From Candidatus Latescibacterota bacterium (lineage in GTDB: Bacteria; Latescibacterota; UBA2968), in contig OZ242320.1 in NCBI GenBank assembly GCA_965208125.1, positions 448,001 to 512,000 of the forward strand: a stretch of 64,000 nucleotides of DNA, given 5' to 3'. The position numbers were made by a program, and so were the translations under genes. This document shows positions 43,627 to 61,900 of this stretch, piece after piece (the first letter of the stretch is position 1; each line of letters starts with the position of its first letter). The notes under the pieces were generated by a model that saw only the letters and a program-made list of their open reading frames with translations, had not been told where the DNA came from and ran no database searches.

Positions 43627-44022
43627 ATGTTGATCTCAATTGACCACCACAATGGCATACCCGTTTTTCGCCAGATCATCGACCAGGTGAAATTCCACGT
43701 AGTCAGCGGGCTACTCGCGCCGGGAGACGAACTGCCCTCGACCCGCGCATTATCGGGGCAACTGGGACTCAACCCAATGACAGTGAGCAAAGCGTATAGC
43801 CTGTTGGAAGCAGAGGGATTGGTCGAGCGGCGGCGCGGACGACCGTTAACCGTAAAACCCTTACGAGATCAGATCGTACACGCCGAAAAACTGGAACAAC
43901 TCAAACCACAACTCACACAATTGGCAACAATGGTTCGGCAGTTGGGGGTTGATCGGGCGGAAGTCGTAGATCTTTTCCACTCCATCTTAGATACCCTGGA
44001 GGAAGACAATGATGGCACATGA
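43627..44022 (+). CDS. GntR family (YtrA subfamily) transcriptional regulator
   Basis: PVFRQI, LPSTRALS..L.LNP.TV.KAY..LE.EG; short C-terminal domain; precedes an ABC ATPase. Confidence 0.93.
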   Translation: MLISIDHHNGIPVFRQIIDQVKFHVVSGLLAPGDELPSTRALSGQLGLNPMTVSKAYSLLEAEGLVERRRGRPLTVKPLRDQIVHAEKLEQLKPQLTQLATMVRQLGVDRAEVVDLFHSILDTLEEDNDGT

Positions 44023-44902
44023 CCAGACATCTGTATTTGAAGCCACATCACTGACCAAAAAATTCGGTGACACCACAGCGCTCAACTCCGTAACGCTCTC
44101 TCTTGGCGCACATCGCGTAATTGGATTGATCGGACGCAATGGCGGAGGCAAAACCACCTTGATCCAGCACATGATCGGCCTGTATTTACCCACAGAGGGA
44201 ACGTGTCAAACACTGGGCCGCGCGTGCGATCAGCTGGGAGCAAACGAACTTTCGCGCATTGGTGTGGTACATCAAGAAAATCGATTTTTCGAATGGATGA
44301 CTGTCAAACAACATCTGCGCTACGTATCCTCATTTTACGAGATATGGGACCGCGATCTGGAAGCGCATCTGTTGCGCGAACTCGAATTGGAAACATCCGC
44401 ACGCGTGGGCAACCTGTCTTCGGGGAACATGCAAAAATTGGGAATCATACTGGCAGTATGTCATCATCCCGAGCTATTGATCTTAGATGAGCCGGTCAGT
44501 GGCCTGGACCCCATTGCCCGGGAGACATTGTTGAAATTTCTAATGACACTCCTGGCTGAAGACGAAAACACAATCGTGATCTCCTCCCACATTCTGCGAG
44601 ACATCGAAAAAATAGTAGATTGGGTCGTATGCCTCGACGAAGGGACAATCAAAGCCGACAAATCGCTGGACGATCTGCACCAGACATACGCAAAGTGGAC
44701 AGTCACAGGAAACAATCTGCCCCAGCAATTTTCTGAACCTTATATCCTATCGCAAACAGTGAACGGAGTACAGGCACAATTGATCGTCAATCAAGCACTG
44801 GGCAATGTAGATCAATTCAAGCGGACTTATCATGCTAATATCACCAGTCAGTCCCTGAATCTCGACCAGCTATTTCCCATCCTGATTCGGGAGGGCGCAT
44901 AA
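44009..44902 (+). CDS. ABC-2 type transporter ATP-binding protein
   Basis: GRNGGGKT, LSSGN, LILDEP, SSH. Confidence 0.93.
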   Translation: MMAHDQTSVFEATSLTKKFGDTTALNSVTLSLGAHRVIGLIGRNGGGKTTLIQHMIGLYLPTEGTCQTLGRACDQLGANELSRIGVVHQENRFFEWMTVKQHLRYVSSFYEIWDRDLEAHLLRELELETSARVGNLSSGNMQKLGIILAVCHHPELLILDEPVSGLDPIARETLLKFLMTLLAEDENTIVISSHILRDIEKIVDWVVCLDEGTIKADKSLDDLHQTYAKWTVTGNNLPQQFSEPYILSQTVNGVQAQLIVNQALGNVDQFKRTYHANITSQSLNLDQLFPILIREGA

Positions 44903-46371
44903 TGGGTATTCTTCCATTTTTCACATTTTGGCGAAGCCCCGTTTACATTATCATCGCCTTGTGTGTCGGCTGGTTTCTCTTCCAAAACTTGGTGTCTTCC
45001 CATGCACATCGGTTCTCTGTATTCTTTTTATTTTTGTTTTTTGAACTTTACGGTGGGATTATCGGCAGTATTGTAGGAGAGAACCAGCACCGGAGGCTCA
45101 CATGGACCCTGCCGCATTTTCGCAAGCGTCTGATGATCTGGTCGATAATTATCGGACTATTTTCCGTTGTGGTGTGGACGATTATACTGGCTTATGCCCC
45201 CCTCAATGCGTCCTGGTCAACAATTTTACTGGTCAATTTGGGCTTTTATTGTTTGGGATTTGCCCTTTTCGGGGGTTGGAGTTTAGATACTAATCGCCCC
45301 GGGTTGATTTACAAGTGCCGGATCCTCATCGTGTTACCGGTGCTGGCATTAACCTATTTGTGGCAAGAGGTACTCGCTTTTGGAGAGCAACAAAAGTTGG
45401 GTTTGGCTCTCATCGCATTCGCCATCGCAATTGGAGCTCATTATTTCGCCTTTAATCAGACGACTTTTCGCAGTAAGCCATTTTCTTTTTGGGTTGGATC
45501 ATTCTACTCGGGTTTTGATCCTCGAACTCGGGAGTTTTGGCAACAGAATGCAATGAAGATGCGAAAGGCGAGTACCAGGGTATGGCATCTCGATCACATC
45601 GGTACAGGCATCTTCAACTGGCTACGTGCGGGCCAGTATGAAAATTTTGATCTGGGTGGGTGGAAATGGCCTATTTCCGCGTTTAGCGCAGCATTGGCAA
45701 TGGTATTCTTTTTTCTCGGCATGACGACGAAGTTATTCGGATTATTGGGTCAGTCTCCTTACGATTTTGAGACCGTCTCGAAAATGATTTATCACCTGAT
45801 CTTTTATTTTCACCAGTTGGACTCCAACATCATCGGGGGTATATTCGGTGCAGTGTTTTTCGGCATTTGTATGTATCTTTTTATTTCTCCTATTTCACTG
45901 AAATGGGGGTATGTCTATCCGCTTTCTCGCACCCAGCGGATGTGGATTCGGTATAGCAGTTTGCTGGTACAAAATATTTCTTTTTTTGTAGCATCTATTC
46001 TGGTATTGAGTGTTCTGGGCATCTTGGCGGGTATAAAGGTCGGGTTTGCGTCTGAAGGAGATATATCTTTGGAAATATTCTGTGTCCTTGGGTGGTGGGT
46101 CGTTCTTTTCCCGATATTGCAGTGGTTGCAAGTCAAATATGACCTGTATGAATTTCAAAGAACGCGGCGACATACATGGGGGATGGCTGTCCTGATCTTG
46201 GGCATAATTTTGGCTTTTGGATTCACTGGTTTTACCAGCCTGATGCGTGTCTGGTATCCCGATTTGATGCTGACCTATGAAGTGCCGATCCTTTTTCTCT
46301 CTTTTATTCTTTTACAATGGTTCCTATTGTCTCGGCTCAAACGGTATTATGCCACACAGGATCTGATTTAG
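44902..46371 (+). CDS. ABC exporter permease-like polytopic membrane protein
   Basis: About 12 TM segments in two halves; coupled to the ATPase stop. Confidence 0.75.
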   Translation: MGILPFFTFWRSPVYIIIALCVGWFLFQNLVSSHAHRFSVFFLFLFFELYGGIIGSIVGENQHRRLTWTLPHFRKRLMIWSIIIGLFSVVVWTIILAYAPLNASWSTILLVNLGFYCLGFALFGGWSLDTNRPGLIYKCRILIVLPVLALTYLWQEVLAFGEQQKLGLALIAFAIAIGAHYFAFNQTTFRSKPFSFWVGSFYSGFDPRTREFWQQNAMKMRKASTRVWHLDHIGTGIFNWLRAGQYENFDLGGWKWPISAFSAALAMVFFFLGMTTKLFGLLGQSPYDFETVSKMIYHLIFYFHQLDSNIIGGIFGAVFFGICMYLFISPISLKWGYVYPLSRTQRMWIRYSSLLVQNISFFVASILVLSVLGILAGIKVGFASEGDISLEIFCVLGWWVVLFPILQWLQVKYDLYEFQRTRRHTWGMAVLILGIILAFGFTGFTSLMRVWYPDLMLTYEVPILFLSFILLQWFLLSRLKRYYATQDLI

Positions 46372-46634
46372 ATTAAGTAGATTGATAAATCAATTGGGTG
46401 GTATAGTGATTGCGATGCGCTCAACTCGAATCTCGCAGGACAAAAAGCATGATTTTTGTATAATTATGCATATATGCATTTGTTTTCTCATAGATTTTTA
46501 ATTTTTTATACACGTTAATAGCATTTAATAACTTGCAGCGTGCCGCCAGGGTTACGACAATAAGAGACACGAAGTATTGGCGTACCCATTCTTTTGCACA
46601 CGTATGTATTCCTATACCTGCGAAAATAACGTGT

Positions 46635-49600
46635 ATGTTTGAAAACGGAACGATTCTCGACAAAAGATACCAAATCCAGACACATCTGGGAACCGGGGGC
46701 ATGGGCGAAGTCTATCGGGTGTTGGACCTGGAGCAAAGCCAGGAGTGCGCGCTCAAAATTTTGAATACCATGGTGGATCAGAAGGCTGTGCATCGCCGCT
46801 TCCACAGAGAATTTCAAGTGTTGAACAGATTCCAGCACCCGCGTCTGGTCCGCACATACACCTGGGGCTTTGCCGAAGATCGCCCCTATTTTACAATGGA
46901 CTATTTGCCTGGCAAGACATTGGAAAAAATAATCGCCGATCATGCACATTCAGGGCAATTCCGAGCGTCTCACTTTTTTGCTCTGATACAACAACTTGCC
47001 GAGGGATTGGCTTATATCCACGCGCAGGGTGCAGTGCATCGCGATCTCAAGCCATCCAATATCATGGTTTTGGAAACAGAAGAGGGGCTTGAGACTACGA
47101 TCCTGGATATGGGACTGGCGAAACTCAGGCATCTGCACAGTGCCTCCATTACGCAGACCGGAACAGCCATTGGCACGGCAGAATATATGTCGCCAGAGCA
47201 GGGTAAGGGTCTTTGGGTGGATCATCGATCAGACCTGTATTCATTGGGCGTGATCTTATACGAGATGCTCACGGGCGCACCGCCCTTTTCCGGACAAAAT
47301 CCCATATCTATTATTATGAAGCATATTCGAGAGTCACCCCCACCAATAGGTGAAACCCATATCGCGATTCCCGAACAGACAAAACAAATCGTGCTGAAGT
47401 TGCTGGCAAAGGAGCTTGTTGATCGCTATCAGTCGGCAGAGGAACTCCTGCGTGCCTTACCATCGGGGGTTGTGCTACCCGATGACGAGCAACGCGATGT
47501 ACATAGAAAAGTGATGCGGCCGCAATTTGTCGGGCGCGAATCTGAAATGAAGACATTGCGCGCGATGTTGCAAGATGTACAGGCTGGCGAGCAACGCGTG
47601 GTTCTAATCTCCGGTGAGTCCGGTGTGGGAAAAACGAGACTAATTGAGGAACTATTGGGCGACGCTTTGATCCATGATTTTCTGTGTTTGAAAGGTGCGA
47701 GCCAGGAAGAAGGTGGACAAATATACGGTGCGTTGATCAGTGCTTTTCAAGAGACGGTGGATTCGGTGGCAGAGCTACCCGACCCTGCAGAATCGGACAA
47801 ATTTTCTGTTATGGAACGCTGGTTGCAGTTATTAAAGCGCCTGCGGCACAAACAGCCCATTGTGTTGTGTTTGGAAGATATTCAATGGCTCGATGAATTG
47901 ACCCTGGAATTTTTACAGTATGTGTTGCGCGATCCAGAACCCTGTCCGTTTTTGTTATGTCTGACTTGCCGATGGTCTAACCTGGAGCCGCTTGCAGAGG
48001 AAATTGAGAATTTTATACACAGCAATGAATTTGCTGGTGCTACTCATATTCAGTTGGAAAATCTACCGCGAGAAGAGGCGGGGTATTTAGCGGCGTCGAT
48101 GTTGGGGGAGCGATCTGTACCGCCGGATACCTTGCAAACCCTGTTCAGAGAAACGGGTGGGCAACCCCTGTTTGTCGTGGAGGCGGTGAGGACACTGGTG
48201 CAGGCCGATGTGGTTCGGCAGAATGTGTCCGGCGATTGGCAGTGGGGAGAATTTCCCGAAACATTATTATCCGATGATATTTCAGAGGTTTTGTACAGGC
48301 GCATAACTACTCTGCCTGATGTGCAACAGCGGGTGCTGGAATATTCGTGTGTTTTTCTGAGTGATTTTTCTTTTGAATTATTAGCTTCGGTTTGGCGTGG
48401 TGATGAGTTGGAGTTGTTAGATGTACTGGACGACTTGATTGCAGGAGAGCTTTTGACAGCTTGTGGAGAAGGCGAAGATCAATATCGATTTTCACAGGGT
48501 TTGTATCAGCAGGCAATTTATGACCGCCTGCAAGATGTGCGGCGGCGTCTGTTACATCGAGAAATTGGCAATGCTTTGGAAGAGACGGAAGATGCGGAAG
48601 AATTGGCGGAAGAATTGGCGGATCATTTTGCGGCGGCAGAAGGACGAGATAAGGCTGTGAAATATGCGCGTATGGCAGGCAAAAAAGCATTGGAACAACA
48701 CGCTTATCGCCAGGCAATGAGAAAGTTCGAGGCTGTGCGGAACTGGACAGCGGATGACACCTTTGATTCACCTGCAAATGCCATCGACTTTTTGTGTGAT
48801 TATGCAGATGCGTTGCGCAATTGTAGTCAGCACAATTGCGCACTGGAACTTTTAGACGAGGCAAAAGCATTATTGCCCGTTGATAATAAAGATTTAAAGG
48901 CGCGTATTTTGAACGACCAGGGTGAAATTCAAAGCGTACTGCAACATGGGGAAATAGCAGAAAAATATATGCTGGAGGCATTGCAACTTTATCGTGAACT
49001 CGGTGATTTTGAGGGTGAAATTCAGGCGTTGGGTAGTTTGGCTTATTTGTGTGATGTGTCTGAACGACACAAAGATGCTATTGCATATATGCGTCGGGAA
49101 ATAGAGAAACGTAGTATGTTGGGAGACCCGCAAAATGAGGCTTTTATACAAGGACGAGAAAGTCAGGCGGCATTGGTCGAGTTTCGATTTGAGACAGCTA
49201 AGGGGCATTTGGAGACTGCTACAAAGGCCTTTCAGCAACCTGGACTTGAACACCAACGCATTTGGGTACTCAATTTACTTCCAAGAGTTTATTTTTATCT
49301 GGGTGATTTCAATCGTGCAGAAGCCGTTTGCAACGAAGCAATTAGTGAATGGCAGAAGCGAGGCGTTGTGTACTGGGAAGCGATGAATTTTCTCTATCTG
49401 GGAGAATTGGCTCTGGAACAAGGTAATTTTGTCGAGGCTCTGGAATACGCCGAGACCTCATCAGAACGATTTTTGCAAACACCGAGAAGAGATTATGTCT
49501 ATAGCGCTTATGCGATTGCAGCAACGGCTGCTGCGAGAATGGGAGATACAGAAGCAGCACTTGAATGGGCAGAAAAAGCCAGTGAAGGAGTGCAGCAAGC

Positions 49601-51443
49601 ATCGGGTATGTACACGGGCATATTGCCCCTGGTGCATTGTGGTATTGGTGTTGCTTTGGCTCAAGCAGGGCGGATAACCGAGGCTGAAGAGGCTTTTGAG
49701 CAGTCTATTGAATGCCGTAGAGAATCCAAAGGCGACCACTGGGCGCGTGCATTGCTGATGGCTGGGGAGTTTTATCTCCAACGCGATGATATGACCAGAG
49801 CTACAGCACATCTCGAAGCGGCAAAACAGGCATTTAGAGAAATGGAAATGTCTTATTTTCTGGAGAAAACACAGGTGTTATTAAATCAATTTGATGGATC
49901 TTCTCGAGGCGGAGATGATGCCCCAACCCGTAGCTCTGAGATTTCAGTCGAGACGTTGTCTGTTGATCGCTTGCGCTTCCTCTACGATGTGAGCAGGGAA
50001 TTGACAACAGAACGCGATGTCAGAGTGTTATTGGACCGGATTTTGGGTAATTTGTTGGCTGTTTATCCAGCAGAGCGCGTGCTTGTTGCGCTAAAAAATG
50101 ATACACCAAAAGGCTTTATGGTTGATGCTGTGCGCCACTACAATTTAGAGGTAGATGATATAGAAGCACTGAGCCAGGGTATTATTCGCCAAGTTATTGA
50201 GACAAATGAACCCGTTTTGAGCTTTGATGCCCAGACAGACGAAAGATTCAATCGGTACCAAAGCGTAATAGATTACCACATTCGGTCTGTATTGTGCGTG
50301 CCCGTATTCCATCTTAACGAAGGTGTGATGGGTGCGCTGTATGTGGATCATCGCGGCATGGGCAACGCATTTTCTGAAGCCGATCAGACGTTTTTGCAGG
50401 CATTTGCTAATCTGGTAGGCGTGGCACTGGTCAATGCGAGGATGTACGAACAATTGGAAGAGAAAGCACAATATTTGCAACAACAGGTCGAAAGGCGATA
50501 TCAGCTTGACGACCTGATCGGACAAAGTGATGCCATGCAGAGGGTTTACCAGCTTATCGAACGCGCTGCAAAGAGTGATATTCCCGTGCTTATTCAAGGT
50601 GAAACAGGTACGGGCAAGGGATTGGCTGCGCGTGCCATACACTACAATAGTGCATGCAAAAACCAGCGATTTTTGTCGCAAAATTGTGCTGCTCTTTCAC
50701 CAGAGTTGTTGCAGAGTGAGTTGTTTGGGTACAAAAAAGGTGCGTTTACCGGGGCGACTGAAGATCACATGGGGATTTTTGAGGCTGCCAATGGCGGTAC
50801 GGTTTTTCTGGATGAAATCGCCGATGCCCCGCCACAGTTGCAAAAGAGTTTGTTGCGGGTGTTGCAAGAGGGTGAGATTCGGCGTGTGGGAGAAACAGAG
50901 GATCGCACAGTGGATGTACGCATTATTGCAGCGACCAATCGGGACTTAAAAAAAGAAGTAGAACAAGGGAGGTTTCGCGAAGATTTGTATTATCGGTTGC
51001 ACGGGATTCAGATCGATATGCCACCTTTGCGAGAACGCATGGAAGATGTGCCGTTATTGGCCGAACATCTGCTCATCCGAACAAAAGAAGATGCAAACAA
51101 GTCGGTTGGGAGGCTGACAGTGGGGGCAATCAGGGCGCTCACAAGTTATGACTGGCCGGGCAATGTGCGCGAGTTGGAAAATAAGGTTCGACTTGCGGTC
51201 GCATTGTCGGAAGAAGGTAGTGAAATCACGTCCGATTTGTTTTCAGAAGCTGTCGGGCACGCACTGTCAGATACTCCTGTTGAATACCAGGAGCGTTTAC
51301 AAGATCGTGTTCGGGAATATGAGAAACGATTGATTATGGATGCGCTCGAGAAATGCGTGGGCAATATTACACATACAGCTGAAGAATTGGGCATGACGCG
51401 CGCGGGTTTACAAAAAAAGATCAATCGTTTGGGGTTGAGATAG
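46635..51443 (+). CDS. Ser/Thr kinase - STAND/AAA ATPase - TPR - GAF - sigma54 AAA+ activator - Fis HTH multidomain regulator
   Basis: LGTGGMGEVY, ALK, HRDLKPSN, DMG, YMSPE; FVGRE..GESGVGKT, LEDIQW; TPR helices; SVLCVP..LYVD GAF; GETGTGK, QSELFG..GAFTGA, FLDEI, RFREDLYYRL, WPGNVREL; C-terminal HTH. Start at ATG 46635. Confidence 0.93.
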   Translation: MFENGTILDKRYQIQTHLGTGGMGEVYRVLDLEQSQECALKILNTMVDQKAVHRRFHREFQVLNRFQHPRLVRTYTWGFAEDRPYFTMDYLPGKTLEKIIADHAHSGQFRASHFFALIQQLAEGLAYIHAQGAVHRDLKPSNIMVLETEEGLETTILDMGLAKLRHLHSASITQTGTAIGTAEYMSPEQGKGLWVDHRSDLYSLGVILYEMLTGAPPFSGQNPISIIMKHIRESPPPIGETHIAIPEQTKQIVLKLLAKELVDRYQSAEELLRALPSGVVLPDDEQRDVHRKVMRPQFVGRESEMKTLRAMLQDVQAGEQRVVLISGESGVGKTRLIEELLGDALIHDFLCLKGASQEEGGQIYGALISAFQETVDSVAELPDPAESDKFSVMERWLQLLKRLRHKQPIVLCLEDIQWLDELTLEFLQYVLRDPEPCPFLLCLTCRWSNLEPLAEEIENFIHSNEFAGATHIQLENLPREEAGYLAASMLGERSVPPDTLQTLFRETGGQPLFVVEAVRTLVQADVVRQNVSGDWQWGEFPETLLSDDISEVLYRRITTLPDVQQRVLEYSCVFLSDFSFELLASVWRGDELELLDVLDDLIAGELLTACGEGEDQYRFSQGLYQQAIYDRLQDVRRRLLHREIGNALEETEDAEELAEELADHFAAAEGRDKAVKYARMAGKKALEQHAYRQAMRKFEAVRNWTADDTFDSPANAIDFLCDYADALRNCSQHNCALELLDEAKALLPVDNKDLKARILNDQGEIQSVLQHGEIAEKYMLEALQLYRELGDFEGEIQALGSLAYLCDVSERHKDAIAYMRREIEKRSMLGDPQNEAFIQGRESQAALVEFRFETAKGHLETATKAFQQPGLEHQRIWVLNLLPRVYFYLGDFNRAEAVCNEAISEWQKRGVVYWEAMNFLYLGELALEQGNFVEALEYAETSSERFLQTPRRDYVYSAYAIAATAAARMGDTEAALEWAEKASEGVQQASGMYTGILPLVHCGIGVALAQAGRITEAEEAFEQSIECRRESKGDHWARALLMAGEFYLQRDDMTRATAHLEAAKQAFREMEMSYFLEKTQVLLNQFDGSSRGGDDAPTRSSEISVETLSVDRLRFLYDVSRELTTERDVRVLLDRILGNLLAVYPAERVLVALKNDTPKGFMVDAVRHYNLEVDDIEALSQGIIRQVIETNEPVLSFDAQTDERFNRYQSVIDYHIRSVLCVPVFHLNEGVMGALYVDHRGMGNAFSEADQTFLQAFANLVGVALVNARMYEQLEEKAQYLQQQVERRYQLDDLIGQSDAMQRVYQLIERAAKSDIPVLIQGETGTGKGLAARAIHYNSACKNQRFLSQNCAALSPELLQSELFGYKKGAFTGATEDHMGIFEAANGGTVFLDEIADAPPQLQKSLLRVLQEGEIRRVGETEDRTVDVRIIAATNRDLKKEVEQGRFREDLYYRLHGIQIDMPPLRERMEDVPLLAEHLLIRTKEDANKSVGRLTVGAIRALTSYDWPGNVRELENKVRLAVALSEEGSEITSDLFSEAVGHALSDTPVEYQERLQDRVREYEKRLIMDALEKCVGNITHTAEELGMTRAGLQKKINRLGLR

Positions 51444-51450
51444 ACGTTGA

Positions 51451-51577
51451 ACAGGTGCATCCAACTGTATGCAGTAGTGCATCCGACTGTATGCACCTGT
51501 CTATCCTTATATAATTCAGACAGTTATGTTGATTTTCTTTAAATAAGCGATTTATAGGTGCATCCAACTGTATGCAC
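51451..51577. promoter_or_regulatory. three palindromic enhancer (UAS)-like sites GTGCAT-N8-ATGCA(C)
   Basis: GTGCATCCAACTGTATGCA 51455-51473, GTGCATCCGACTGTATGCAC 51477-51496, GTGCATCCAACTGTATGCAC 51558-51577; about 110-230 nt upstream of a -24/-12 promoter. Confidence 0.75.
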
Positions 51578-51638
51578 TTACACCAGAATCTCGCAGATTT
51601 AGCACAAATCATTCTCAAATTTTATCTCTTTGTTTTTC

Positions 51639-51670
51639 AAGCACTTGAGCACATTCAAGTGCTTTTTTTT
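51639..51670 (+). terminator. hairpin plus T8 between enhancer and promoter (terminator-like; overlaps an IHF-like site)
   Basis: aagcacttga-N6-tcaagtgctt then T-run; TTTCAAGCACTTG is 1 mismatch from WATCAANNNNTTR. Confidence 0.5.
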
Positions 51671-51686
51671 ATTCTGAGACGATTTT

Positions 51687-51702
51687 TGGCACGGATCTTG
51701 CA
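51687..51702 (+). promoter_or_regulatory. sigma54 (-24/-12) promoter
   Basis: TGGCACGGATCTTGCA is an exact match to TGGCACG-N4-TTGCW. Confidence 0.9.
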
Positions 51703-51757
51703 CTATAAAGAGGGCAAACCGTTATGGCACAGGATTTTTCCATTAAAGGAGGATAAC

Positions 51758-51937
51758 ATGGCAACACGACGCAAGTTGAATTTGATCAATGGAACGATAG
51801 ATCAAGAAGGTAGCATCCTCAGGTATCAAGCTACGAACAGTTTCGAAGTAGGTGCCTGTCCCCCTGGTAGGGTGGTTGTTCCGACTCTGCCCTTTCCCGA
51901 TGATGACGATAGAGACGAATTTGATCCGGCTGAGTGA
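51758..51937 (+). CDS. putative RiPP precursor peptide, 59 aa (MATRRKLNLINGTIDQEGSILRYQATNSFEVGACPPGRVVVPTLPFPDDDDRDEFDPAE)
   Basis: AAGGAGG RBS 5 nt before the ATG; first gene after the sigma54 promoter; 28 nt before a radical SAM gene; leader RKLNLING resembles SCIFF/PapA leaders. Confidence 0.8.
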   Translation: MATRRKLNLINGTIDQEGSILRYQATNSFEVGACPPGRVVVPTLPFPDDDDRDEFDPAE

Positions 51938-51965: not shown

Positions 51966-53408
51966 ATGCTGTGTATTCAAAAATGCGACATACATCTTTT
52001 TCAAACTGAAGAGCACAAACAGCCGATTGTCTATCAGGTTGAGACCGGTCTGTTTTTTAAACTGGATACTCTTTTCCAGTCAATTTTAGAGTGCTGCGAG
52101 GGGTTGTCTGCTTCGCAGGTTATTCAGATGCTGGCTGATCAATACGAGGCAGAAGAGATTGTCGAGGCTATCGAGGAACTGGCTCAGGTGGGTTTGATTT
52201 CGGATGGTGCTCTACCTGTGGTAGCCAATGTGCCGACAACAGAAGGGGTGGCAGCCTGTGGGGTTTCGCAGACAGATCGGTTGCAGGTGTCGTTGCACGT
52301 TTCGCATACGTGCAATATCCAATGTGCGTATTGCTTTGCTCACGGTGGGGATTACGGCGGTAAGGCTATGCTGATGCAACCAGAGGTTGCTGAGCAAGCG
52401 ACACGCTGGATTGTCACCGAGGCTCAGGTGTTCGGGCGGTGCCAGATTGATTTTTTTGGCGGGGAGCCGCTCTTGAATTTTCCGCTGCTGCGCGAGTTGG
52501 TACCGTCTGCCAAATCCCTGGGCGCGCGATTGGGTGTGCAGGTTGGTTTTGGCATTGTGACCAATGGCACGTTGTTGACCGACGAGATGAAGCAGTTTTT
52601 GATTGATGAAAAGTTTCAGATTAAAGTCAGCCTGGATGGGGGACGTAAAACACAGGATCGCATTCGCAAGTTTCACAATGGTTCTGGAACTTATGATGTC
52701 GTGGCAAAGAATGTACAGAAACTGACTGCTGAGGTACCTGAGCGCGTGTATTTGCAGGCTGTTATGACAGCGTATGATATGGATGAGGATCAGATTGCCG
52801 ATGCGTTGCGTTCTCTGGGTACTGAAAACGCGCTCATCGATCCGGCTGTCGTTTCACCGGATGCGCCCTATGCGATTCGAGAAGAACACATACCTGTTTT
52901 GAAGCAACAAATTTACAAGCGAAGCCGGCGTGCGCTCAAAGCCATTTTGAATGGTGAAGAGTGTGAAGAGTTTGATCCGCGGATTCAAAAATTGCTGACA
53001 CGCAAAAAATCCTGTCACGGGTGCCTGGGTGGCAAGCAGTATTTGGCGATTGCAGCAGACGGATCGATTTATTTTTGTTCGAGTTTGGCCGACGCGCCCG
53101 AGTTTAAGATGGGTGATGTGTTTGCGGGTATTGATCGCGAAAAGCAGCAGCATTTTGACGCGCAGTTCAATGTGAATAATCGTCCTGAGTGCAAGACATG
53201 CTGGGCGCGCAACTTGTGTGGTGGCGGATGTCTTTGGGATGCGCGGACGACAACGGGTGATCCGATGTATCCAAACCCAGTTTCCTGTGAACAGACGCGC
53301 TATCGCTATGAGTTGGCGATGGAGATGTGTATGGAAATTGCAGAAGCAGATGCGTCTTTGTTGCCGCGACGATATGATCTGGAAGTGGCATCTGAAGCAG
53401 ACAAGTAA
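51966..53408 (+). CDS. radical SAM/SPASM peptide maturase with N-terminal RRE (PqqD-like) domain
   Basis: N-terminal 3 strands plus helices (YQVETGLFFKLD...EEIVEAIEELAQVGLI); CNIQCAYC; FFGGEPLL, VTNGTLL, VSLDG; SPASM GC..YFC..CKTC.5.C.3.C..C; GAGGAG RBS. Confidence 0.93.
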   Translation: MLCIQKCDIHLFQTEEHKQPIVYQVETGLFFKLDTLFQSILECCEGLSASQVIQMLADQYEAEEIVEAIEELAQVGLISDGALPVVANVPTTEGVAACGVSQTDRLQVSLHVSHTCNIQCAYCFAHGGDYGGKAMLMQPEVAEQATRWIVTEAQVFGRCQIDFFGGEPLLNFPLLRELVPSAKSLGARLGVQVGFGIVTNGTLLTDEMKQFLIDEKFQIKVSLDGGRKTQDRIRKFHNGSGTYDVVAKNVQKLTAEVPERVYLQAVMTAYDMDEDQIADALRSLGTENALIDPAVVSPDAPYAIREEHIPVLKQQIYKRSRRALKAILNGEECEEFDPRIQKLLTRKKSCHGCLGGKQYLAIAADGSIYFCSSLADAPEFKMGDVFAGIDREKQQHFDAQFNVNNRPECKTCWARNLCGGGCLWDARTTTGDPMYPNPVSCEQTRYRYELAMEMCMEIAEADASLLPRRYDLEVASEADK

Positions 53409-53425: not shown

Positions 53426-53468
53426 AAAACTATCCTTAAGCTTACAAACTTAAGGATAGTTTTTTTTT
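53426..53468 (+). terminator. strong intrinsic terminator closing the peptide-rSAM transcript
   Basis: aaaactatccttaag-N8-cttaaggatagtttt plus T-run. Confidence 0.85.
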
Positions 53469-53524
53469 CTGAAAAATCCGTATATTCTAATACCATTTGA
53501 TATTGAGATTAGTAGAGGTGAACC

Positions 53525-54712
53525 ATGTTAAGATCAAATGTTGAATGGAAAAAAAAATATACAAGTACAGTTAAAATATCTATAGGCTTACTTTGTCTTG
53601 CGTCGTTCATTGCCTGTGGTGCTTCGAAAAGTATTGATTCTGATGTTCTATTTTTCGGTGATATACCACCATTGTCGTCAATGGATCATTTGGCAATCAT
53701 CGGAGGCGCAACAAACAAATCAATTGTTGTTGTTGATATTGCAAATAAGAAACAAGCAGGTACAATCACTTTCGAAAAAATTATTCAAGGATGTGCTATC
53801 TCACCCCAGGATAGAAGCATCTGGTTGACATTTACTTTTTGGAGTAATCAGAAAGGGATATTTAAGCTCAATTTTGACAGCAAACCCGAGATTGTAAACC
53901 TTATTCCGGATTTACAAGGCAACTTGCATTTCAACCATGATGGACGAAGACTTTATGTCACGCCAGGTTCTGAAAAGCTTTACATTATTGACACACAATC
54001 CAATCAATTAGTGGAGACAGTTTCTACCATTACCGGAAATCACGGAGAAGGTTGGGCATTTTTTAACGCCAGTGAAGCACAAAATGGACTGATTGCTTTA
54101 ACGGGTATGCCTCTGCGATTTGAAGCTGTAAATGAAGGATTCAACGTTTATTCTGATTATACAAAAACCTTTCTCTTTTTACTTGATGAAAAACGAACTG
54201 TTATACCGCTTGAGTTTGTTGGGGGATTTTCGACTCCCCCGATTTTTTCATTTGATAACAGATTAATAAGCACACTCAGTAAAGAAGAAAAATCAGTCTC
54301 AATTTATGATCTTGATTCTAAAAAAATGAACAGTATTCCTATTGGTGGAGATGTTGTGACATTCGGTGGATACGATAACGACAATGACATTTTCTATGTT
54401 TTATCAAGAAATTTTGATCGAGAATACGGAATTTTAGAAGGCATCACCACCCTGATATTATTGGACATAAGATCCAAAAGCATCATTGATACGCGCACCA
54501 TAGCCGGTAATTATTGGAACGGTGTGTATGATAGAGTATCTCAGACCATCCTATTGGTAGGGCCACATACTGAGGATGTGCGTGAAATACATAATAGAAC
54601 AATTCCTATTTCCAGTTTAACGATTTATGATCCGCATCAAGACCAAATTGTTGATCATATTTCAATTGATGGAGGAACATCCCTGGGAGCTGAGATTTTC
54701 TTGGCCCCCTAA
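53525..54712 (+). CDS. putative lipoprotein with YncE/YVTN-like beta-propeller
   Basis: Basic N-terminus, hydrophobic stretch, FIA-C lipobox; blades such as IVVVDIANKK, FNHDGRRLYVT, LYIIDTQSNQLVETV; low GC. Confidence 0.7.
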   Translation: MLRSNVEWKKKYTSTVKISIGLLCLASFIACGASKSIDSDVLFFGDIPPLSSMDHLAIIGGATNKSIVVVDIANKKQAGTITFEKIIQGCAISPQDRSIWLTFTFWSNQKGIFKLNFDSKPEIVNLIPDLQGNLHFNHDGRRLYVTPGSEKLYIIDTQSNQLVETVSTITGNHGEGWAFFNASEAQNGLIALTGMPLRFEAVNEGFNVYSDYTKTFLFLLDEKRTVIPLEFVGGFSTPPIFSFDNRLISTLSKEEKSVSIYDLDSKKMNSIPIGGDVVTFGGYDNDNDIFYVLSRNFDREYGILEGITTLILLDIRSKSIIDTRTIAGNYWNGVYDRVSQTILLVGPHTEDVREIHNRTIPISSLTIYDPHQDQIVDHISIDGGTSLGAEIFLAP

Positions 54713-54771
54713 CTTAAAAGTTGGGAAGTTCCTTCGTAGATAAGAGAAATAGCCCACACCTCCATTTCGGG

Positions 54772-54922
54772 GAATCTGGCCAATTCGGCCGGACTGCGAC
54801 CAGCGCGCACAAGCTCGACGATTTGGCGCTTCAACTCGAGTGGATAAGGGGACGTGTTGGTGGCATAGTGGGTCTCCTTTCTAACTACTGATAAAGGTAC
54901 TCACCGAAACGGATCAAGTCCA
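54772..54922 (-). mobile_element. IS3-family left end with frameshifted, truncated OrfA
   Basis: End begins TGGACTTGATCC...; AAGGAG RBS; ATG 54866 MPPTRP/PYPLELKRQIVELVRAGRSPAELAR is an HTH_Tnp_1-like start across a frameshift; no OrfB. Confidence 0.7.
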
Positions 54923-54928
54923 GGGTAA

Positions 54929-55435
54929 CTACTGTTTGCTGAGTTTTGATATTAATCTATTTATCTCTTTTGCCATTTGATCCACAGATTCTTGAGGCCG
55001 CTTGATCGGAATTGGAATAATGCCATTACGAATTTCTGAGACTATAATCGGTACTCCAACCAGCTTTTCATCTATGATTATACCAATACGCTTTTTGAGA
55101 TAGGTGCGGCTTATGGTCCGGAATTTTTCACTTCCTTCTGGATTACAGTGCAATAATAGAGTTGTATAAGGACTCGGGTTAGATGTTTGTGTAATGGTTG
55201 CACGTTTAATATCAGAAAGGCCCAAAAGAACCTCAGGCTTAAGTGCGGATTGCTTACCCGAATCTATCAATTCCATGACAGATGAACTGTCGCTTCTATT
55301 GGTATCGATAAGTCGTACCTGAATATATGTTTTATCTATAGTCTGTTCTTTACCTTGAGCAGGATTTAGTGCACCAAACAAAGCTGACAGAATGCTCAGA
55401 CCGAAAAGTCTTAGAATATGCATTTGTGCCCCCAT
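54929..55435 (-). CDS. exported protein with SecDF P1-head-like domain
   Basis: Signal peptide; LHCNPEGSEKFRTISRTYLKKRIGIIIDEKLVGVPIIVSEIRNG matches the SecD P1 head pattern; no SecD TM domain. Confidence 0.7.
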   Translation of the reverse strand: MGAQMHILRLFGLSILSALFGALNPAQGKEQTIDKTYIQVRLIDTNRSDSSSVMELIDSGKQSALKPEVLLGLSDIKRATITQTSNPSPYTTLLLHCNPEGSEKFRTISRTYLKKRIGIIIDEKLVGVPIIVSEIRNGIIPIPIKRPQESVDQMAKEINRLISKLSKQ

Positions 55436-55836
55436 TCTTTTTCCTTAAGTTCCGGAATCAATCTGGTCAAAGACTTGATGGCGTTTCGATTTTAGCTGAT
55501 TCAAAGTCAATACCATCTTGGTTAGAATTTACGCCTCTTCAAATTAGTTCTCTTCCTCCCGATGAGGAAGTAGAAATTTTTTTGATGACATGGGACGTGA
55601 AGTCGGTAGCAGTCACTGTTAAGGATGATTTTTTGACATTGGGGACACAGGTTCCATATGGTCAGGCTTGGAAGATGGCGGGAGTGGTGCCTCACATGTC
55701 CATCTGCTTGTAAAACAAATTGGACATGCAATGACTCTTCACTTCCCGAAGACGCAAATTCCTTTTGTGACAGATCGGAGTTTATTGTTATTTTTATGAG
55801 TAGATCGCCTTATGATGAAAAAAGAAAGGAATTGTT

Positions 55837-56712
55837 GTGAAACGAATATTTTTGGTGTTCTTTTGCCTATCTTTGGGGTTGGTTGGTTCTTTACCTGCTA
55901 TTCAGAAAATGCAGATTACAGAACCTTCTCAACTACCAGAAGATCGTATGCTTCCCGACATTCCCTGGCCTCAAAGTTTGATACAGAAAATAGAAGGCCT
56001 TCATGTGGAACTTGTCGGATATCTAAAATCAGAAAATCATGAGATGTACGTATCAAGGATGGAAGAATTTTTAAATGAGGAGATTCATGATACGGAGTCT
56101 CTATTGGTACTAAACTATACAATAGGGCAAATGTGCCGGTTTGTAGCTTATGAGAAATCGGATGCTGATGTACGCCGTAGATGGTACCAAAAGGCGGTTG
56201 GATTCAACAAGACTGCGATTGAACTTGCACGCACGGATTCTTCCAAATTCAAACCCTATCTGGTCAGATGCTACTTTGGTCTTGCTGAGTGCTATGATGG
56301 GTTAGAAGAAAAAAATCTTGCTCTGGACATGTATCAGCGTTTGGTTGGTTTCAAGGGGGTTGGACACGGAAAATTGAAGGATGACCTTGCTTCAGGTGGC
56401 ATTGGCAATGTTGTTCGCCTATGGAGAGACTTACAGCGCGATCCTGTCGAGTTGCGTAAATATCTAAGAAATATAGCGACATCGAATATGGACAACGAAA
56501 TAGGTTTCGTAGCACTTCAAAAATTGGTTGACTTCGATTTATTAGAAGGAAATTTGCAGATTGCAAGAACTACTCTGAATGAACTGAAGATGCGTTATGG
56601 TGATATTCAAAAATTAGGCGGCCAGATGCCTTCACTTCAAATTAAAGGACTTGAAGATCAATTTAATATTGCGGAAAAATCTAAACATAAAGAACCTGGT
56701 CATAAGCATTGA
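55837..56712 (+). CDS. exported TPR-like helical protein
   Basis: AAAGGA RBS, GTG start, signal peptide; CYFGLAECYDGLEEKNLALDMYQRLV TPR-like helix pair. Confidence 0.7.
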   Translation: MKRIFLVFFCLSLGLVGSLPAIQKMQITEPSQLPEDRMLPDIPWPQSLIQKIEGLHVELVGYLKSENHEMYVSRMEEFLNEEIHDTESLLVLNYTIGQMCRFVAYEKSDADVRRRWYQKAVGFNKTAIELARTDSSKFKPYLVRCYFGLAECYDGLEEKNLALDMYQRLVGFKGVGHGKLKDDLASGGIGNVVRLWRDLQRDPVELRKYLRNIATSNMDNEIGFVALQKLVDFDLLEGNLQIARTTLNELKMRYGDIQKLGGQMPSLQIKGLEDQFNIAEKSKHKEPGHKH

Positions 56713-57651: not shown

Positions 57652-57846
57652 ATGAAGACGAAGCGCGCTAACAGGCAGGGATAGTCAAACTATCTGCGTT
57701 CAGGCTCAAAAGTGATTGTCCCGAATTGAAATCTTTTCAAAATTGGCTGTAGATCATTTACTTGCTTAAAAACGGCATCCAAATGGGGAGCGCTCTATTA
57801 GATGCCGTTTGTTTTGCTTTTTTGGGTGGGCGACAGATTGTTAGTA

Positions 57847-58839
57847 ATGGGAGAAATATATCAATCAAAAAAATCCGGCCTCAATAAATGGCCGCTCATT
57901 GGACAGCATTCCTCACTCTTAGACGTGCAAAAGCGCGCGTACCGCGTGGCAAATAGCGAATTGCCCGTCAACATCAGTGGAGAAACTGGCACGGGCAAGG
58001 AATTGCTCGCCCGTTATGTTCACGGCATTAGCCACCGCAACAGGGGACCATTTGTAACCGTTGACTGCGGCATACTCTCTTCTGAAATGGCGCGCAGCGA
58101 GTTATTTGGACATGTTCGAGGTGCTTTTACCGGCGCCAGCGAAACGCGCACTGGACTGGTTGAATCTGCCCGAGGCGGTACGTTATTCCTCGATGAAGTA
58201 GGCGAATTGCCAGCCAATCTTCAGTTACAATTGCTCCGCCTGGTACAGGAACAGGAATTTCGCCGCGTAGGCGAAGCATCCATGCGCCGGTCCGATGTGC
58301 GCCTGATCACTGCGACACACTGCAACTTGCGAAAAATGGTGCGAAAAGGGACTTTCCGAGAAGATCTCTATTACCGCTTAACTGTCGTCCCTCTGCATTT
58401 GCCACCCCTGCGAAAGCGGATGAGCGATTTGCCACTTCTGGTCACGCATTTTTGCCAGGAAATGAAAGGATACACCCGCGCATTTTCCCCCGAAGTGATT
58501 CAAAAGATGTCGCGTTATGCATGGCCGGGCAATGTTCGGGAACTACAACACGAAGTCGCCCGATTAATGGTCATGGCCGAAGGTAAAATTATCCGCGTAT
58601 CCGATTTGCGCCCTCGCATTCGAGGATCCAAAGCAGAGGTCGATGTATTTGACCTCCCGTTTAAGGAAGCCAGACAACTGGCGAACAGCCAGTTTATGCG
58701 AGAGTATCTTCACAGAGCTTTGCAGCGAACACAGGGCAATGTAACCCAGGCAGCGCAACAATGCGGGATTGGCCGACAGTATTTCCAATTGCGTATGTCT
58801 GAATACGGGCTAAAGTCGGCATCTTACAAACAAAAATAA
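57847..58839 (+). CDS. sigma54-dependent activator lacking an N-terminal sensor domain (AAA+ plus Fis HTH)
   Basis: GETGTGKE, SELFGHVRGAFTGA, FLDEVGEL, FREDLYYRL, WPGNVREL, GNVTQAA; only about 15 aa precede the AAA+ domain. Confidence 0.92.
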   Translation: MGEIYQSKKSGLNKWPLIGQHSSLLDVQKRAYRVANSELPVNISGETGTGKELLARYVHGISHRNRGPFVTVDCGILSSEMARSELFGHVRGAFTGASETRTGLVESARGGTLFLDEVGELPANLQLQLLRLVQEQEFRRVGEASMRRSDVRLITATHCNLRKMVRKGTFREDLYYRLTVVPLHLPPLRKRMSDLPLLVTHFCQEMKGYTRAFSPEVIQKMSRYAWPGNVRELQHEVARLMVMAEGKIIRVSDLRPRIRGSKAEVDVFDLPFKEARQLANSQFMREYLHRALQRTQGNVTQAAQQCGIGRQYFQLRMSEYGLKSASYKQK

Positions 58840-58940: not shown

Positions 58941-61900
58941 ATGCAATACATCGCCGACATACACCTGCACTCGCGTTTTGCCCGCGCAACCAGCAAAGCC
59001 CTGAACCCCGAAAACCTGTATCGATGGAGCCTCATCAAAGGTCTAACCGTGGTCGGCACCGGAGATTTTACCCATCCCGTATGGTATGAAGAACTGCGCG
59101 ACCAACTCGAACCCGCCGAAGAAGGGCTATATCAATTGCGATCAGACCTCAGACGAGGTATCGACGCCGAATTGCCGCCAGCCTGCCGCGGACAAATGCG
59201 ATTTGTGCTCTCCGTCGAAATCAGTCTCATATACAAAAAAAACGACAAAACCAGAAAAATTCATCACGTCGTCCTGATGCCAAATTTTGATGCTGCAGCG
59301 CGCTTGAATGCCCGACTCGGCGCAATAGGCAATCTAAAATCAGATGGACGCCCCATCCTGGGCCTGGACAGCCGGGACCTGGTGGAAATTTGTCTGGAAA
59401 CGTGTGACGAAGTACTCTTTATACCCGCGCACATCTGGACCCCTCACTTCGCGGTCCTGGGCGCGAGTTCTGGATTCGACACCCTCGAAGAATGTTTTGA
59501 AGACATGCTCCCCCATATCTTCGCCGTAGAAACTGGCCTGTCTTCCGATCCACCCATGAACTGGCGCCTATCCATGCTGGACAACTACGCAATCGTCTCC
59601 AATTCAGACGCCCATTCCCCACAAAAGCTCGCCCGCGAAGCCACCTGCTTTAACACCGAATTATCCTTCCGCGGAATGTATGACGCATTAAAAGACCGCG
59701 ACCCAGCGCGATTTACAGGCACCCTGGAATTCTATCCCGAAGAAGGCAAATATCACTTTGACGGACATCGAAAATGCGATATATGCTGGAAACCCGTACA
59801 AACCCTCAACGCAAACGAAATCTGCCCAGTATGTAACCGCAAATTGACCGTCGGCGTACTCCACCGCGTTGAAAAACTCGCAGACCGCGCAGAAGGCGAC
59901 CGCCCCGAAGTGGCAATGCCCTTTGAAAATCTGATCCCACTGCCGGAAATCATCGGCTCGGTCCTCCAGGTAGGCCCCACCAGCAAGCGCGTACAAACCG
60001 TGTACGAACAAATGCTATCAACACACGGGGCAGAATTGAAAATCCTGCGCGAACTGTCCATCGAAAAAATCGCCCAAACAGGAGACCCCCTCATCGCCGA
60101 AGGCATTCGACGCATGCGCAAAGGAGAAGTTCACATTGCGCCGGGATACGACGGCGTGTACGGAAAAATTCAAGTCTTCTCCGACGAAGACCGCGCACGC
60201 CTGAGCGGGCAGGAATCGCTATTTCACATACCAGCCGCGGAGCCTGCAAAGGAGGCAGAAGAGAACCCGAGCCAAGACAAGAGCACAGAAACCGCGATAG
60301 TCAAAGATTCTCCCCTCACACGTCCCACTTCACACTTCACACTCCTCAACCCACACCAGCAAGCAGCCGTAACCATGGAAAAAGGTCCCGTCATCGTAAC
60401 AGCGGGACCCGGCACCGGAAAAACTCGGGTCCTCACCCATCGCGTCATCGACCTGATCCAGAACCGCGGCGTATCGCCCGCTTCTATAATAGCCGTAACA
60501 TTCACCAACCGCGCCGCGACTGAAATGTGGGAACGCATCGTATCACTATCCTCAGGAGGCGAAGAACTGGTACCCATGCGCGTAGGCACATTCCATCGGT
60601 TGGCATTAGACCTCCTGCGGGAATACGCCCCCGAACGGCTGGGCGCAATAGCCGACCGAGGAGAAGCCCGTACTGTATTGCAAGAAGCAATCGCCGACAT
60701 CGATACCGAAATATCGGTCGATGACGCACGCTCCCAGATCTCCCTATTCAAAGCTGAGGGACGGGAAATACCCGTCACCGACACTGAACTCCAAACCATT
60801 TACACAAATTATCAAAATCGCCTGACTGCTTATGGCCTGATGGACTTTGACGACATCTTGCTCATCCTCCACGACGTACTCGGCAGCGACATTTTGCGGA
60901 CAGTGCAAGCGCGTTTTTCCCATATACTCGTCGATGAATTTCAGGACATCAATGCCGTACAATACGCACTGATTCAAAAATTGGCCGGAGATGGGTCGGG
61001 CCTCTTTGTCATCGGCGACCCCGATCAAGCCATCTACGGTTTTCGGGGCGCGAGCGCGGAATATTTTGCACAATTAAAAACGGACTTTCCCGGAACAAAC
61101 GAAGTCATCCTACAGCACACATTTCGCTCCACCCCTCAGATCATCTCCGCAGCATCCAGCCTGCTCCGCGGAAGATCTTATGTCCCCGTACGAGAAAACG
61201 GTCCAAACCTGAGCGCTTTATCCACACCCGGCGAAACCAGTGAAGGCATTGCCATCGTAGAAGAAATCTCCCGAATGGTCGGCGGCGCAGACTTATTGCA
61301 AGCCAACGAAGAAGGCAAACGCAGTCTGGACGACTTCGCCGTCTTATTCCGCACCGGACGCCAGGCAGACGCCCTGGAAACGTGCTTCTTACAGGCCGGG
61401 ATCCCCTACCGCGTCGTCGGGCAAAAAAGCTATCTGGACGCGGCTTCGGTACAACACGCCCTATCGTTTTTTAAATGCGTCCTGAGGGATGACATTTCCA
61501 GCACCCCATCCACCAGAGATATAACCGACCTCCTCTCCATCCCCGCATTTGACCCCGGCAGAGAAGCGCGCGCATCAATACGCCGGCAAATTCAAGACAA
61601 CGCACTATCAGACACTGTACAGGAAAAATTAAACGCCGCGCTGGAAGCCGTAAATCGCTTCCGCAATGAAACATCCCACCTATCGCCTTCAGAACGCATA
61701 GCGAAGTGGACAGACGAATTTGCGACATCAGACGACATAGACATCGAGCGATTGAGCCTATTGGCTCAAGGCGTGGATACCATCGCGGAGCTATTGGACA
61801 TCATCACCCTGGGACAGGATGGCGACTTTGTGCGTCGTGGAAAGATAGCGCGTCCCGAAGCCGTCACACTCATGACCTTGCATGCGTCTAAGGGCCTGGA

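Follow-up and report, generated by a model that had tools for sequence, protein, structure and literature searches.

What becomes of a peptide that offers a single cysteine to an enzyme whose nearest known kin work on cysteine-rich substrates? The question is raised by a 64,000-nt stretch of DNA from a Candidatus Latescibacterota bacterium (assembly GCA_965208125.1, contig OZ242320.1, positions 448,001 to 512,000; hereafter the window, whose own numbering is used throughout), in which a small gene for a 59-amino-acid (aa) peptide, at 51758 to 51937, is followed at once by a gene for a radical S-adenosylmethionine (rSAM) enzyme with a SPASM domain. Our best reading is a RiPP (a peptide made by ribosomes and modified after translation) with one thioether ring, gated by sigma-54 and made by the adjacent rSAM/SPASM enzyme with the 59-aa peptide as substrate; in our judgement this reading has an even chance of being right. 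Peptide and enzyme represent a new precursor family and a new subfamily of enzymes; the kind of peptide-modifying system to which they belong is known, but the single-Cys, Pro-rich core is unusual. Also unusual for such a system is an explicit sigma-54 regulatory module, made of a promoter, a dedicated multi-sensor activator and paralog-specific pairs of operator and recognition helix.

The peptide gene and its constrained parts

Translation from the ATG at 51758 to the stop codon ending at 51937 gives MATRRKLNLINGTIDQEGSILRYQATNSFEVGACPPGRVVVPTLPFPDDDDRDEFDPAE, in which the only Cys is residue 34 and Arg stands four residues further on (C+4). We divide the peptide into a leader (about residues 1 to 23), a spacer reaching to residue 33, Cys34, a hypervariable loop (35 to 40), a VPPLPFP block (41 to 47) and an acidic/aromatic tail (48 to 59). 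In a mechanical list of open reading frames (ORFs), the gene is buried within a 121-aa ORF (51572 to 51937). This longer form is not credible as a gene, because the relatives are mostly about 59 aa long and because a terminator hairpin and a conserved sigma-54 promoter both lie inside it, downstream of its ATG (Table 1). The first-pass annotation of this DNA, made from the letters alone, had already suspected a peptide gene hidden in a spurious ORF, and had described a precursor-type peptide with a basic leader, one Cys, Arg at C+4 and no C-x3-D/E motif. Each of these points stands: the leader is conserved and ends in L-x-L-[IV]-N-G, and C+4 is W, P, T, R, D, S, V or G over 36 distinct six-residue loops. 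The same annotation had called for a search for invariant residues, and the Cys and the leader, on whose conservation it had staked its proposal, are kept in the orthologous loci.

A word-indexed search of 5.8 billion proteins with the 59-aa peptide as query returned 67 relatives (E 8.7e-33 to 2.2e-8), across which frame and length are conserved. M1, L7, L9, N11 and G12 are invariant in their alignment, and at least 90% conservation is seen at T3, R4, K6, I14, D15, E17, G18, I20, Y23 and E30, and in the C-terminal half at C34, V41, P42, P45, F46, P47 and D49 to D51. The conserved Cys is present in 66 of the 67, and the lone exception reads like a frameshifted core. Exactly one Cys is found in 54 relatives, two in 11 and three in 1, the extra cysteines being N-terminal to the conserved one, in leader or spacer. 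The gap from Cys to the [VI]P that follows is six residues in all 51 single-Cys sequences matched by the pattern (extra upstream cysteines confound the count in the remaining matches, and 4 of the 67 fall outside the pattern). What fills this gap changes freely: 48 distinct strings lie between the Cys and the VPPLPFP-type block, and among the clean six-residue loops, 36 in number, Pro stands at C+2 in 29, position C+3 is taken by Gly in 20 and by Tyr in 10, and C+4 is free to vary, being Arg in 3.

Selection was estimated over 22 loci, namely 20 from a scan of one genome per species, the window, and the paralog in the window's own genome. A crude pooled Nei-Gojobori count, in which the pairs are non-independent, gives ratios of non-synonymous to synonymous change (dN/dS) of 0.24 for the leader, 0.38 for the spacer, 0.89 for loop 35-40 (almost neutral), 0.12 for VPPLPFP and 0.23 for the acidic tail. 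Cys34 is unchanged in 22/22 loci, its codon having undergone synonymous change and no non-synonymous one. At the sequence level, this pattern and the behaviour of the Cys codon mark a translated gene in which two parts under constraint flank a loop that is free to change, and the codon-level evidence confirms 51758-51937 as a real gene, far beyond chance.

The family appears to stand apart. The peptide matches no NCBIfam or Pfam family, and a comparison of all 67 members with NCBIfam, at E up to 10, gave nothing beyond two chance matches at E 0.15. A profile of the peptide alignment run against 1.84 billion representatives found 14 matches at E <= 0.001; the 10 inspected among these 14 belong to the same family or are frameshifted copies, so that no remote precursor relative was recognized among them by sequence. 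A third match in the window's own genome was set aside as chance (E 0.61, internal stop).

The tail deserves a remark of its own. Reading P-F-P-D-D-D-D-[WR]-D-[DE]-F (51899-51934, residues 48-59), it forms an acidic/aromatic C-terminus that is under purifying selection and is missing from the sister families described below; it is reminiscent of protein-docking tails such as that of SSB.

The partner enzyme and the control of the operon

The enzyme carries an N-terminal RiPP recognition element (RRE) at about residues 20-77, a CX3CX2C motif at C116/C120/C123 and seven conserved SPASM cysteines; these three and seven cysteines are invariant in an alignment of 54 homologues. Pfam Radical_SAM, Fer4_12 and SPASM are all matched over cut-off, and PqqD, the model with the RRE fold, is matched weakly (19.8 against a cut-off of 23.4). 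The five best NCBIfam matches, at 225-265 bits, all fall within the thioether-forming CteB/PapB/QhpD clade: the SCIFF maturase TIGR03974 (265.3 bits, cut-off 425), QhpD TIGR03906 (248.1, cut-off 453), the nif11-type rSAM maturase (244, cut-off 519), 'not_ScfB' (234, cut-off 855) and PapB NF047865 (225.5, cut-off 340). Further down come anSME (110.7 bits, cut-off 349) and the cyclophane and ether formers (73-91 bits). By these scores the enzyme is placed inside the SCIFF/QhpD/PapB thioether clade and outside its curated families. The sole close solved structure is that of CteB (PDB 5wgg/5why, E 7.8e-60 over enzyme residues 20-452); an anSME structure, PDB 4k36, is also matched (E 1.5e-16).

The first-pass annotation had assumed an RRE-bearing rSAM partner, which would be this SCIFF/QhpD/PapB-clade enzyme, encoded 28 nt downstream, and had proposed a model of the peptide on the RRE. 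We modelled the complex of enzyme (alignment of 54) and peptide (alignment of 67) with three 4Fe-4S clusters and SAM. The leader was placed on the RRE with a docking score of 0.82 (runs 0.82, 0.82 and 0.83), the best of 3 controls scoring 0.00. This mark is reached by 58 of 80 solved complexes and by 2 of 110 mismatched pairs, a calibration that is only rough here, with our own alignments used and small molecules included. The runs share at least 53% of their contacts, with a predicted local distance difference test score (pLDDT) of the partner of at least 43, and confident contacts join peptide residues 4-14 and 20-23 to enzyme residues 21, 28-37, 64-75, 343-346, 452-459 and 474. The model supports, though it does not demonstrate, binding of the leader as a strand on the N-terminal RRE.

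In all 22 loci the order is regulator, peptide, rSAM, with identities to the window of about 77-85%, 57-80% and 89-93%, respectively. By their flanking genes the loci are of two types: type A (10 loci), in which a GntR/ABC pair lies upstream, and genes for a short sigma-54 activator and a UvrD-like protein lie downstream, and type B (12 loci), with a GT2 gene upstream in the 3 loci examined, and a Methyltransf_24-like gene followed by unrelated genes downstream. The regulator is a giant protein combining a Ser/Thr kinase (Pkinase, 3.4e-48), an AAA_16/STAND NTPase (AAA_16, 2.5e-28), tetratricopeptide repeats (TPR_12), GAF (6e-16), a sigma-54 AAA+ activator domain (Sigma54_activat, 6.3e-74) that reads GAFTGA, and a Fis-type helix-turn-helix (HTH_8, 9.5e-12). 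Its start is uncertain, many relatives aligning only from residue ~31-35 (Met35 is at 46635).

Between regulator and peptide, the pattern TGCAT-N8-ATGCA occurs three times; these are its only copies in the window, where 0.17 would be expected and where none of 100 shuffles reached three. We presume these palindromes to be the upstream activator sites of the regulator. They recur at the same offsets in 10/10 type-A loci and in 0/12 type-B loci, the latter carrying GTGTAT-type sites. The recognition helix reads TRAGLQKKINRL in 10/10 type-A regulators; the type-B regulators that were aligned have, in 8/8 cases, TRVGLHKKINRL or a -SLYRK- form. Operators and recognition helix thus change in step between the locus types, which fits each regulator driving its own adjacent operon.

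The element TGGCACGGATCTTGCA is a perfect -24/-12 element, and GGCAC-N5-TTGC[AG] is visible about 58-74 nt before the ATG in 22/22 loci (13/22 with a stricter pattern). The strict consensus TGGCACG-N4-TTGCW has 25 sites in the 5.75-Mb genome, both peptide loci included, against 0 for the reversed control, and rpoN is present (429.6 bits, over cut-off). With promoter, rpoN, GAFTGA activator and upstream sites all in place, the operon is predicted to be sigma-54 dependent. The hairpin that terminates the regulator gene is visible upstream of the promoter at other loci as well. Since terminators stand on both sides, peptide and rSAM form a two-gene operon in the window. As an observation in its own right, 25 strict sigma-54 sites per genome make a small, clean candidate regulon.

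Large signal-integrating regulators beside precursor genes are not new, as TIGR03903 (TOMM system kinase/cyclase fusion) and NF038230 (GPMC regulator) illustrate. The kinase part of the present regulator matches the former (1.4e-86) and its AAA+ part the latter (2.7e-58), both below cut-offs. Unlike these, kinase, STAND NTPase, TPR, GAF and sigma-54 activator are fused here in a protein of ~1,600 aa, and the paralogs have specific operators with a matching change of recognition helix. We found no literature linking ranthipeptides with sigma-54, though supplementary datasets of mining papers, which lay outside the search, might list the family.

Hints of expression come from four RNA-library runs (contigs, from three studies) in which relatives of the rSAM gene occur. 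A contig of 2,587 nt, from a relative, covers 51748-51802 and 51966-53386, with 173 unlike letters in between; this fits co-transcription in the relative, whose divergent core would lie in that gap. Bins 51542-51683 are uncovered in the four runs, which for contig data does not prove absence.

Table 1. Features of the peptide locus, in window positions
Feature	Position	Strand	Remarks
Giant regulator, 1636 aa as listed	46533..51443	+	Directly upstream of peptide gene in 22/22 loci
Palindromes TGCAT-N8-ATGCA (three)	51456-51473, 51478-51495, 51559-51576	unstranded	Found by pattern search
Regulator terminator	51639..51672	+	10-11 bp stem AAGCACTTGA/TCAAGTGCTT and T-run; hairpin 51639-51664
Sigma-54 (-24/-12) promoter TGGCACGGATCTTGCA	51687..51702	+	About 56 nt before ATG
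Shine-Dalgarno AAGGAGG	51746..51752	+	5 nt before ATG; GGAG[GA] before ATG in 22/22 loci
Putative precursor peptide, 59 aa	51758..51937	+	Homologues, codon-level constraint
rSAM/SPASM maturase, 480 aa	51966..53408	+	Starts 28 nt downstream of peptide gene
Intrinsic terminator, strong	53426..53473	+	15-bp stem and T-run; 18 nt after rSAM stop
Methyltransf_24-like protein (mt), 296 aa	56761..57651	+	3.3 kb downstream here, outside operon

What the enzyme may do to the peptide

Several known systems can be set beside this one. The best family and structure match of the enzyme is to SCIFF (ScfA/ScfB; CteA/CteB of Clostridium thermocellum), which likewise combines RRE, rSAM and full SPASM in a two-gene cassette without protease or exporter. 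The SCIFF leader is basic and ends in an L-N-G-like motif, as does that of MATRRKLNLINGTIDQEGSILRYQATNSFEVGACPPGRVVVPTLPFPDDDDRDEFDPAE. Unlike in SCIFF, however, the enzyme stays well below the family cut-off and the precursor lies outside the SCIFF model; there is one conserved Cys instead of six, with a Pro-rich core and an acidic tail; and the host is a member of the Latescibacterota, with sigma-54 control, and not of the Clostridia.

PapA/PapB makes freyrasin, a ranthipeptide with six Cys-x3-Asp/Glu thioethers, and PapB is related to our enzyme below its own cut-off. PapB joins Cys to the carbon next to an Asp or Glu carboxylate C-terminal of the Cys, and will accept even the C-terminal carboxylate, according to PMC12373016. 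As in PapB substrates, the carboxylates that come into question here all lie C-terminal to Cys34; unlike in PapA, there is no C-x3-D/E, and no conserved Asp comes nearer to the Cys than 14 residues.

The related QhpD, whose cut-off our enzyme likewise does not reach, matures QhpC, the small subunit of quinohemoprotein amine dehydrogenase. In PMC13692751, QhpD is described as using RRE and leader, and as joining Cys to Asp and to Glu by thioethers in a polypeptide that remains intracellular. The pair thus sets a precedent both for rings of longer range and for a product that is not secreted, but QhpC has several cysteines and the present peptide one. No dehydrogenase subunit genes were seen around the locus, where the neighbours are the regulator, proteins of beta-propeller, SecDF-P1-like and TPR type, mt and an activator.

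That a lone Cys can yield one thioether through an rSAM enzyme has precedents in KgrA/KgrC (enteropeptin type) and NxxcA/NxxcB. Rings in KgrA and NxxcA are small and local. KgrC and NxxcB are members of different rSAM groups and do not appear among the top matches of the window enzyme. KgrA is described in PMC10288494 as having just one Cys, and NxxcB is named as a family in PMC11851443.

More distant relatives of the locus bear on the chemistry. At 39-58% identity lies a second tier of the enzyme's relatives, beyond which identity falls to about 30% for SCIFF maturases. We examined eight sister loci with a readable gap (L039-L045 and L048; enzymes 42-54% identical). A sigma-54 activator lies upstream in 7/8, none being detected in L048, and GGTAC-type -24/-12 elements are visible in L039-L042. 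A small ORF preceded by a Shine-Dalgarno sequence occupies the gap in 8/8, a frame change being needed in L043. The leaders conform to L-x-L-[IV]-N-G, less strictly so in L045 and L048, and are followed by one Cys after hydrophobic residues and then by a Pro/aromatic-rich stretch, with cores of the types C-V-W-P-W-F-P-I-L-P-P-P, C-D-P-S-F-P-L-F and C-D-D-G-F-Y-Y-P. For the C-V-W-P-W-F-P type, four called relatives keep that Cys and have a second one. A poly-Asp tail is absent from the sister peptides of all eight loci. In the distant sister loci L039, L045, L046 and L048 the rSAM/SPASM gene is immediately followed by another of its kind, with 23-26% identity between the two, and such systems may install two modifications.

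The course of events that we propose is as follows. The two-gene operon would remain silent until the giant activator, bound to the three palindromes, opens the sigma-54 promoter. In the leader, the stretch R4-I14 (the model shows contacts to Y23 as well) would dock as a strand on the N-terminal RRE of the enzyme, which would then use Cys34 for one intramolecular thioether, with a loss of 2 Da. The acceptor would most probably be a carbon of a residue within the invariant V41-D51 block, so that one macrocycle is closed around hypervariable loop 35-40. A ring onto V41-D51 is suggested by the fixed six-residue gap from the Cys and by the freely evolving loop. Cys34 as donor, the thioether bond, the location of the acceptor and the role of the product are what we infer, and a sactipeptide (S-C alpha) and a ranthionine linkage are indistinguishable by sequence. 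Of the chemistries offered in the first-pass annotation, a long-range Cys-Asp/Glu thioether, a Cys-Pro/Gly link and a non-thioether modification may each apply as far as sequence and model go. Two marks of a ranthipeptide-type system are present: a CteB/PapB/QhpD-clade maturase with an RRE (weak in Pfam, with modelled contacts on 21-75), and an adjacent small precursor in the same operon, its leader placed by the model on the RRE. A Cys-rich core with repeated donor-acceptor motifs (C-x3-D/E) is not seen in the family, given the single Cys of most relatives and the variable C+4.

Several observations weigh against this reading. The enzyme scores below every curated NCBIfam cut-off, be it SCIFF, QhpD, nif11, not_ScfB, PapB or anSME. 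Six residues of CteB are named for lying close to its catalytic site in PMC10288494; three of the six are identical in our enzyme (F124, F164 and S222), and V198, S372 and S373 replace the CteB T, H and Q. The chemistry is read from clade membership only, and the product is predicted from genes. Ranthipeptide acceptors known so far are Asp, Glu, Thr and Asn, and residues of these types occur at no fixed position within the loop. The docking model places the leader alone with confidence, leaves the position of Cys34 uncertain and is silent on the acceptor, and since a solved CteB-peptide complex exists, its good score may reflect likeness to that complex. Contigs from RNA libraries may include DNA and are no proof that one transcript spans the genes. 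Finally, sister families without the acidic tail argue against Asp as a universal acceptor: if the chemistry is shared, Asp is not the acceptor. In the 59-aa peptide family taken by itself, an Asp acceptor is compatible with tail-less sister families.

A first alternative concerns the fate of the peptide, which may be retained as an intracellular small protein, either a QhpC-like subunit or cofactor-like partner, or a feedback ligand of the adjacent regulator, with the leader kept and the VPPLPFP-acidic tail serving as an interaction surface. We rate this as rather unlikely, if the best placed of the alternatives. In neither type-A nor type-B loci is a protease or exporter conserved beside the module, among the flanking genes compared in the 22 loci, and the product may for that reason remain intracellular, perhaps with the leader attached, as is suspected for SCIFF and is the case for QhpC; genes for export and processing need not, however, be linked. 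Block and tail are more strongly constrained than the leader, as an interaction surface would be, but the tail is not conserved in the sister families. The regulator offers TPR and GAF domains able to bind ligands or peptides, yet its conservation dips just slightly at the TPR region (0.75-0.78, against about 0.86 elsewhere). We had considered regulator variability as a sign of peptide sensing and rejected it, this dip being too weak and confounded by kinship.

A second alternative keeps the pair and changes the bond: aromatic, Pro and Arg residues of the core would be joined to each other by a C-C or C-O bond, Cys34 being no more than a ligand of auxiliary cluster I, or Cys34 would be oxidized to formylglycine in the manner of anSME. 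This copy reads C-P-P-G-R, which fits C-x-P-x-R; the core is rich in Pro and aromatic residues here and in the sister families, with Pro at C+2 in most loops; anSME is a detectable relative in both NCBIfam and the PDB; and the two residues after the auxiliary-cluster Cys differ from those of CteB (SS for HQ). Nevertheless, Arg stands at C+4 in so few loops that the sulfatase motif is not conserved, and the enzyme is nearer to the thioether formers (225-265 bits) than to anSME (111, against a cut-off of 349) or to the cyclophane and ether formers. It also carries an RRE, which anSME is not known to have. We therefore regard non-thioether chemistry as unlikely.

More speculative still is a private signalling circuit, in which the cyclized peptide, with its hypervariable ring (residues 35-40), would be sensed by the TPR/GAF part of its own activator, which would in turn switch on the operon from the paralog-specific operators, and in which the ring acceptor could be novel, for example Pro or Val of VPPLPFP. 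We consider this a long shot. The constrained tail and the lack of genes for export and processing would fit a loop with the regulator as they would an intracellular product. Were the circuit real, genomes with 1-3 insulated copies would run several private 'pherotype' channels, and uncultured sponge symbionts would have arrived at an RRNPP- or Agr-like logic by combining a radical-SAM RiPP with an enhancer-binding protein of the sigma-54 type.

That the ORF is untranslated, its conserved sequence serving the rSAM gene as a 5' untranslated or regulatory element, is hardly believable: most annotations do omit the ORF or label it a hypothetical protein, but a strong Shine-Dalgarno sequence lies at the right distance in 22/22 loci, change is codon-wise (dN/dS 0.12-0.24 in the conserved parts, with the synonymous change of the Cys codon), and frame and length are kept in the 67 relatives.

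The family is of use beyond this locus. Mining tools for rSAM thioethers are trained on Cys-rich cores; in a 2023 mining paper, single-Cys precursors are left out of the training set for want of data (PMC10288494). With about 70 sequences, an invariant Cys, a fixed spacing to the Pro-rich block and a hypervariable loop, the present family is a clean case in which to look for a ring topology or acceptor residue that is new to the SCIFF/QhpD/PapB clade, and its regulatory context may help to explain what SCIFF-like two-gene cassettes are for.

Range, locus types and neighbouring genes

All 20 scanned loci are labelled Latescibacterota. An rSAM match at E <= 1e-60 is found in 26 of 168 genomes of the phylum, and within the window's genus in 15 of 20 other genomes, with 1-3 copies each. 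As judged from these genomes, the distribution is narrow, being that of sponge-type Latescibacterota. antiSMASH 'ranthipeptide' clusters are reported from metagenome-assembled genomes of sponge Latescibacterota in PMC12993501, the available text of which does not analyse their precursors; the peptide/rSAM family would supply such clusters with concrete content.

The gene mt follows the rSAM gene in 11/12 type-B loci (77-84% identity; L020 ends too soon), at distances from 6 nt (L009, L014 and L015) to about 3 kb (L021). It is possibly a tailoring enzyme. Evidence for its family is weak: Pfam E 0.003, below cut-off, and E 0.0013 for the O-methyltransferase PDB 2gpy, with Atlas feature matches of 0.96 to clusters in which PF13578 occurs in 16-31% of members.

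Some regulators have been remodelled. The paralog regulator in the same genome (L054:5939-9220; C1 ~2461938-2465219) is a single 1093-aa ORF that aligns to residues 32-680 and 1211-1636 of the window regulator, so that about 530 residues, which cover the TPR region, have been lost in frame. The regulators of L020 and L021 are broken or rearranged.

In the window, a three-gene insert (53525-56712) separates the rSAM terminator from mt. It encodes a 395-aa putative lipoprotein with weak beta-propeller matches, a 167-aa SecDF-P1-head-like protein on the reverse strand and a 291-aa TPR protein; none of these stands beside the rSAM gene in the other 21 loci, and we rejected them as parts of the system. 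Beyond mt come a 345-aa sigma-54 activator (57802-58839), with AAA+ and HTH only and no N-terminal sensor domain, and a 1076-aa UvrD-like protein (58941-62171). This pair is found downstream of 9/10 type-A loci at about 88-95% identity, L018 coming to an end 400 nt past the rSAM gene. A short GntR-type regulator, an ABC ATPase and a multi-pass membrane protein of 489 aa are encoded upstream of the big regulator, at 43627-46371. Conservation of the permease is confined to type-A loci (63-81% identity), type-B loci lacking it, and these genes could form an export or immunity module.

Downstream of mt, gene content differs between type-B loci, with nothing conserved (L011:10756-12537 and L015:9738-11645): one locus has a Sel1-repeat/trypsin-like peptidase and an AbiC-like protein, another a tyrosinase-domain protein and a patatin.

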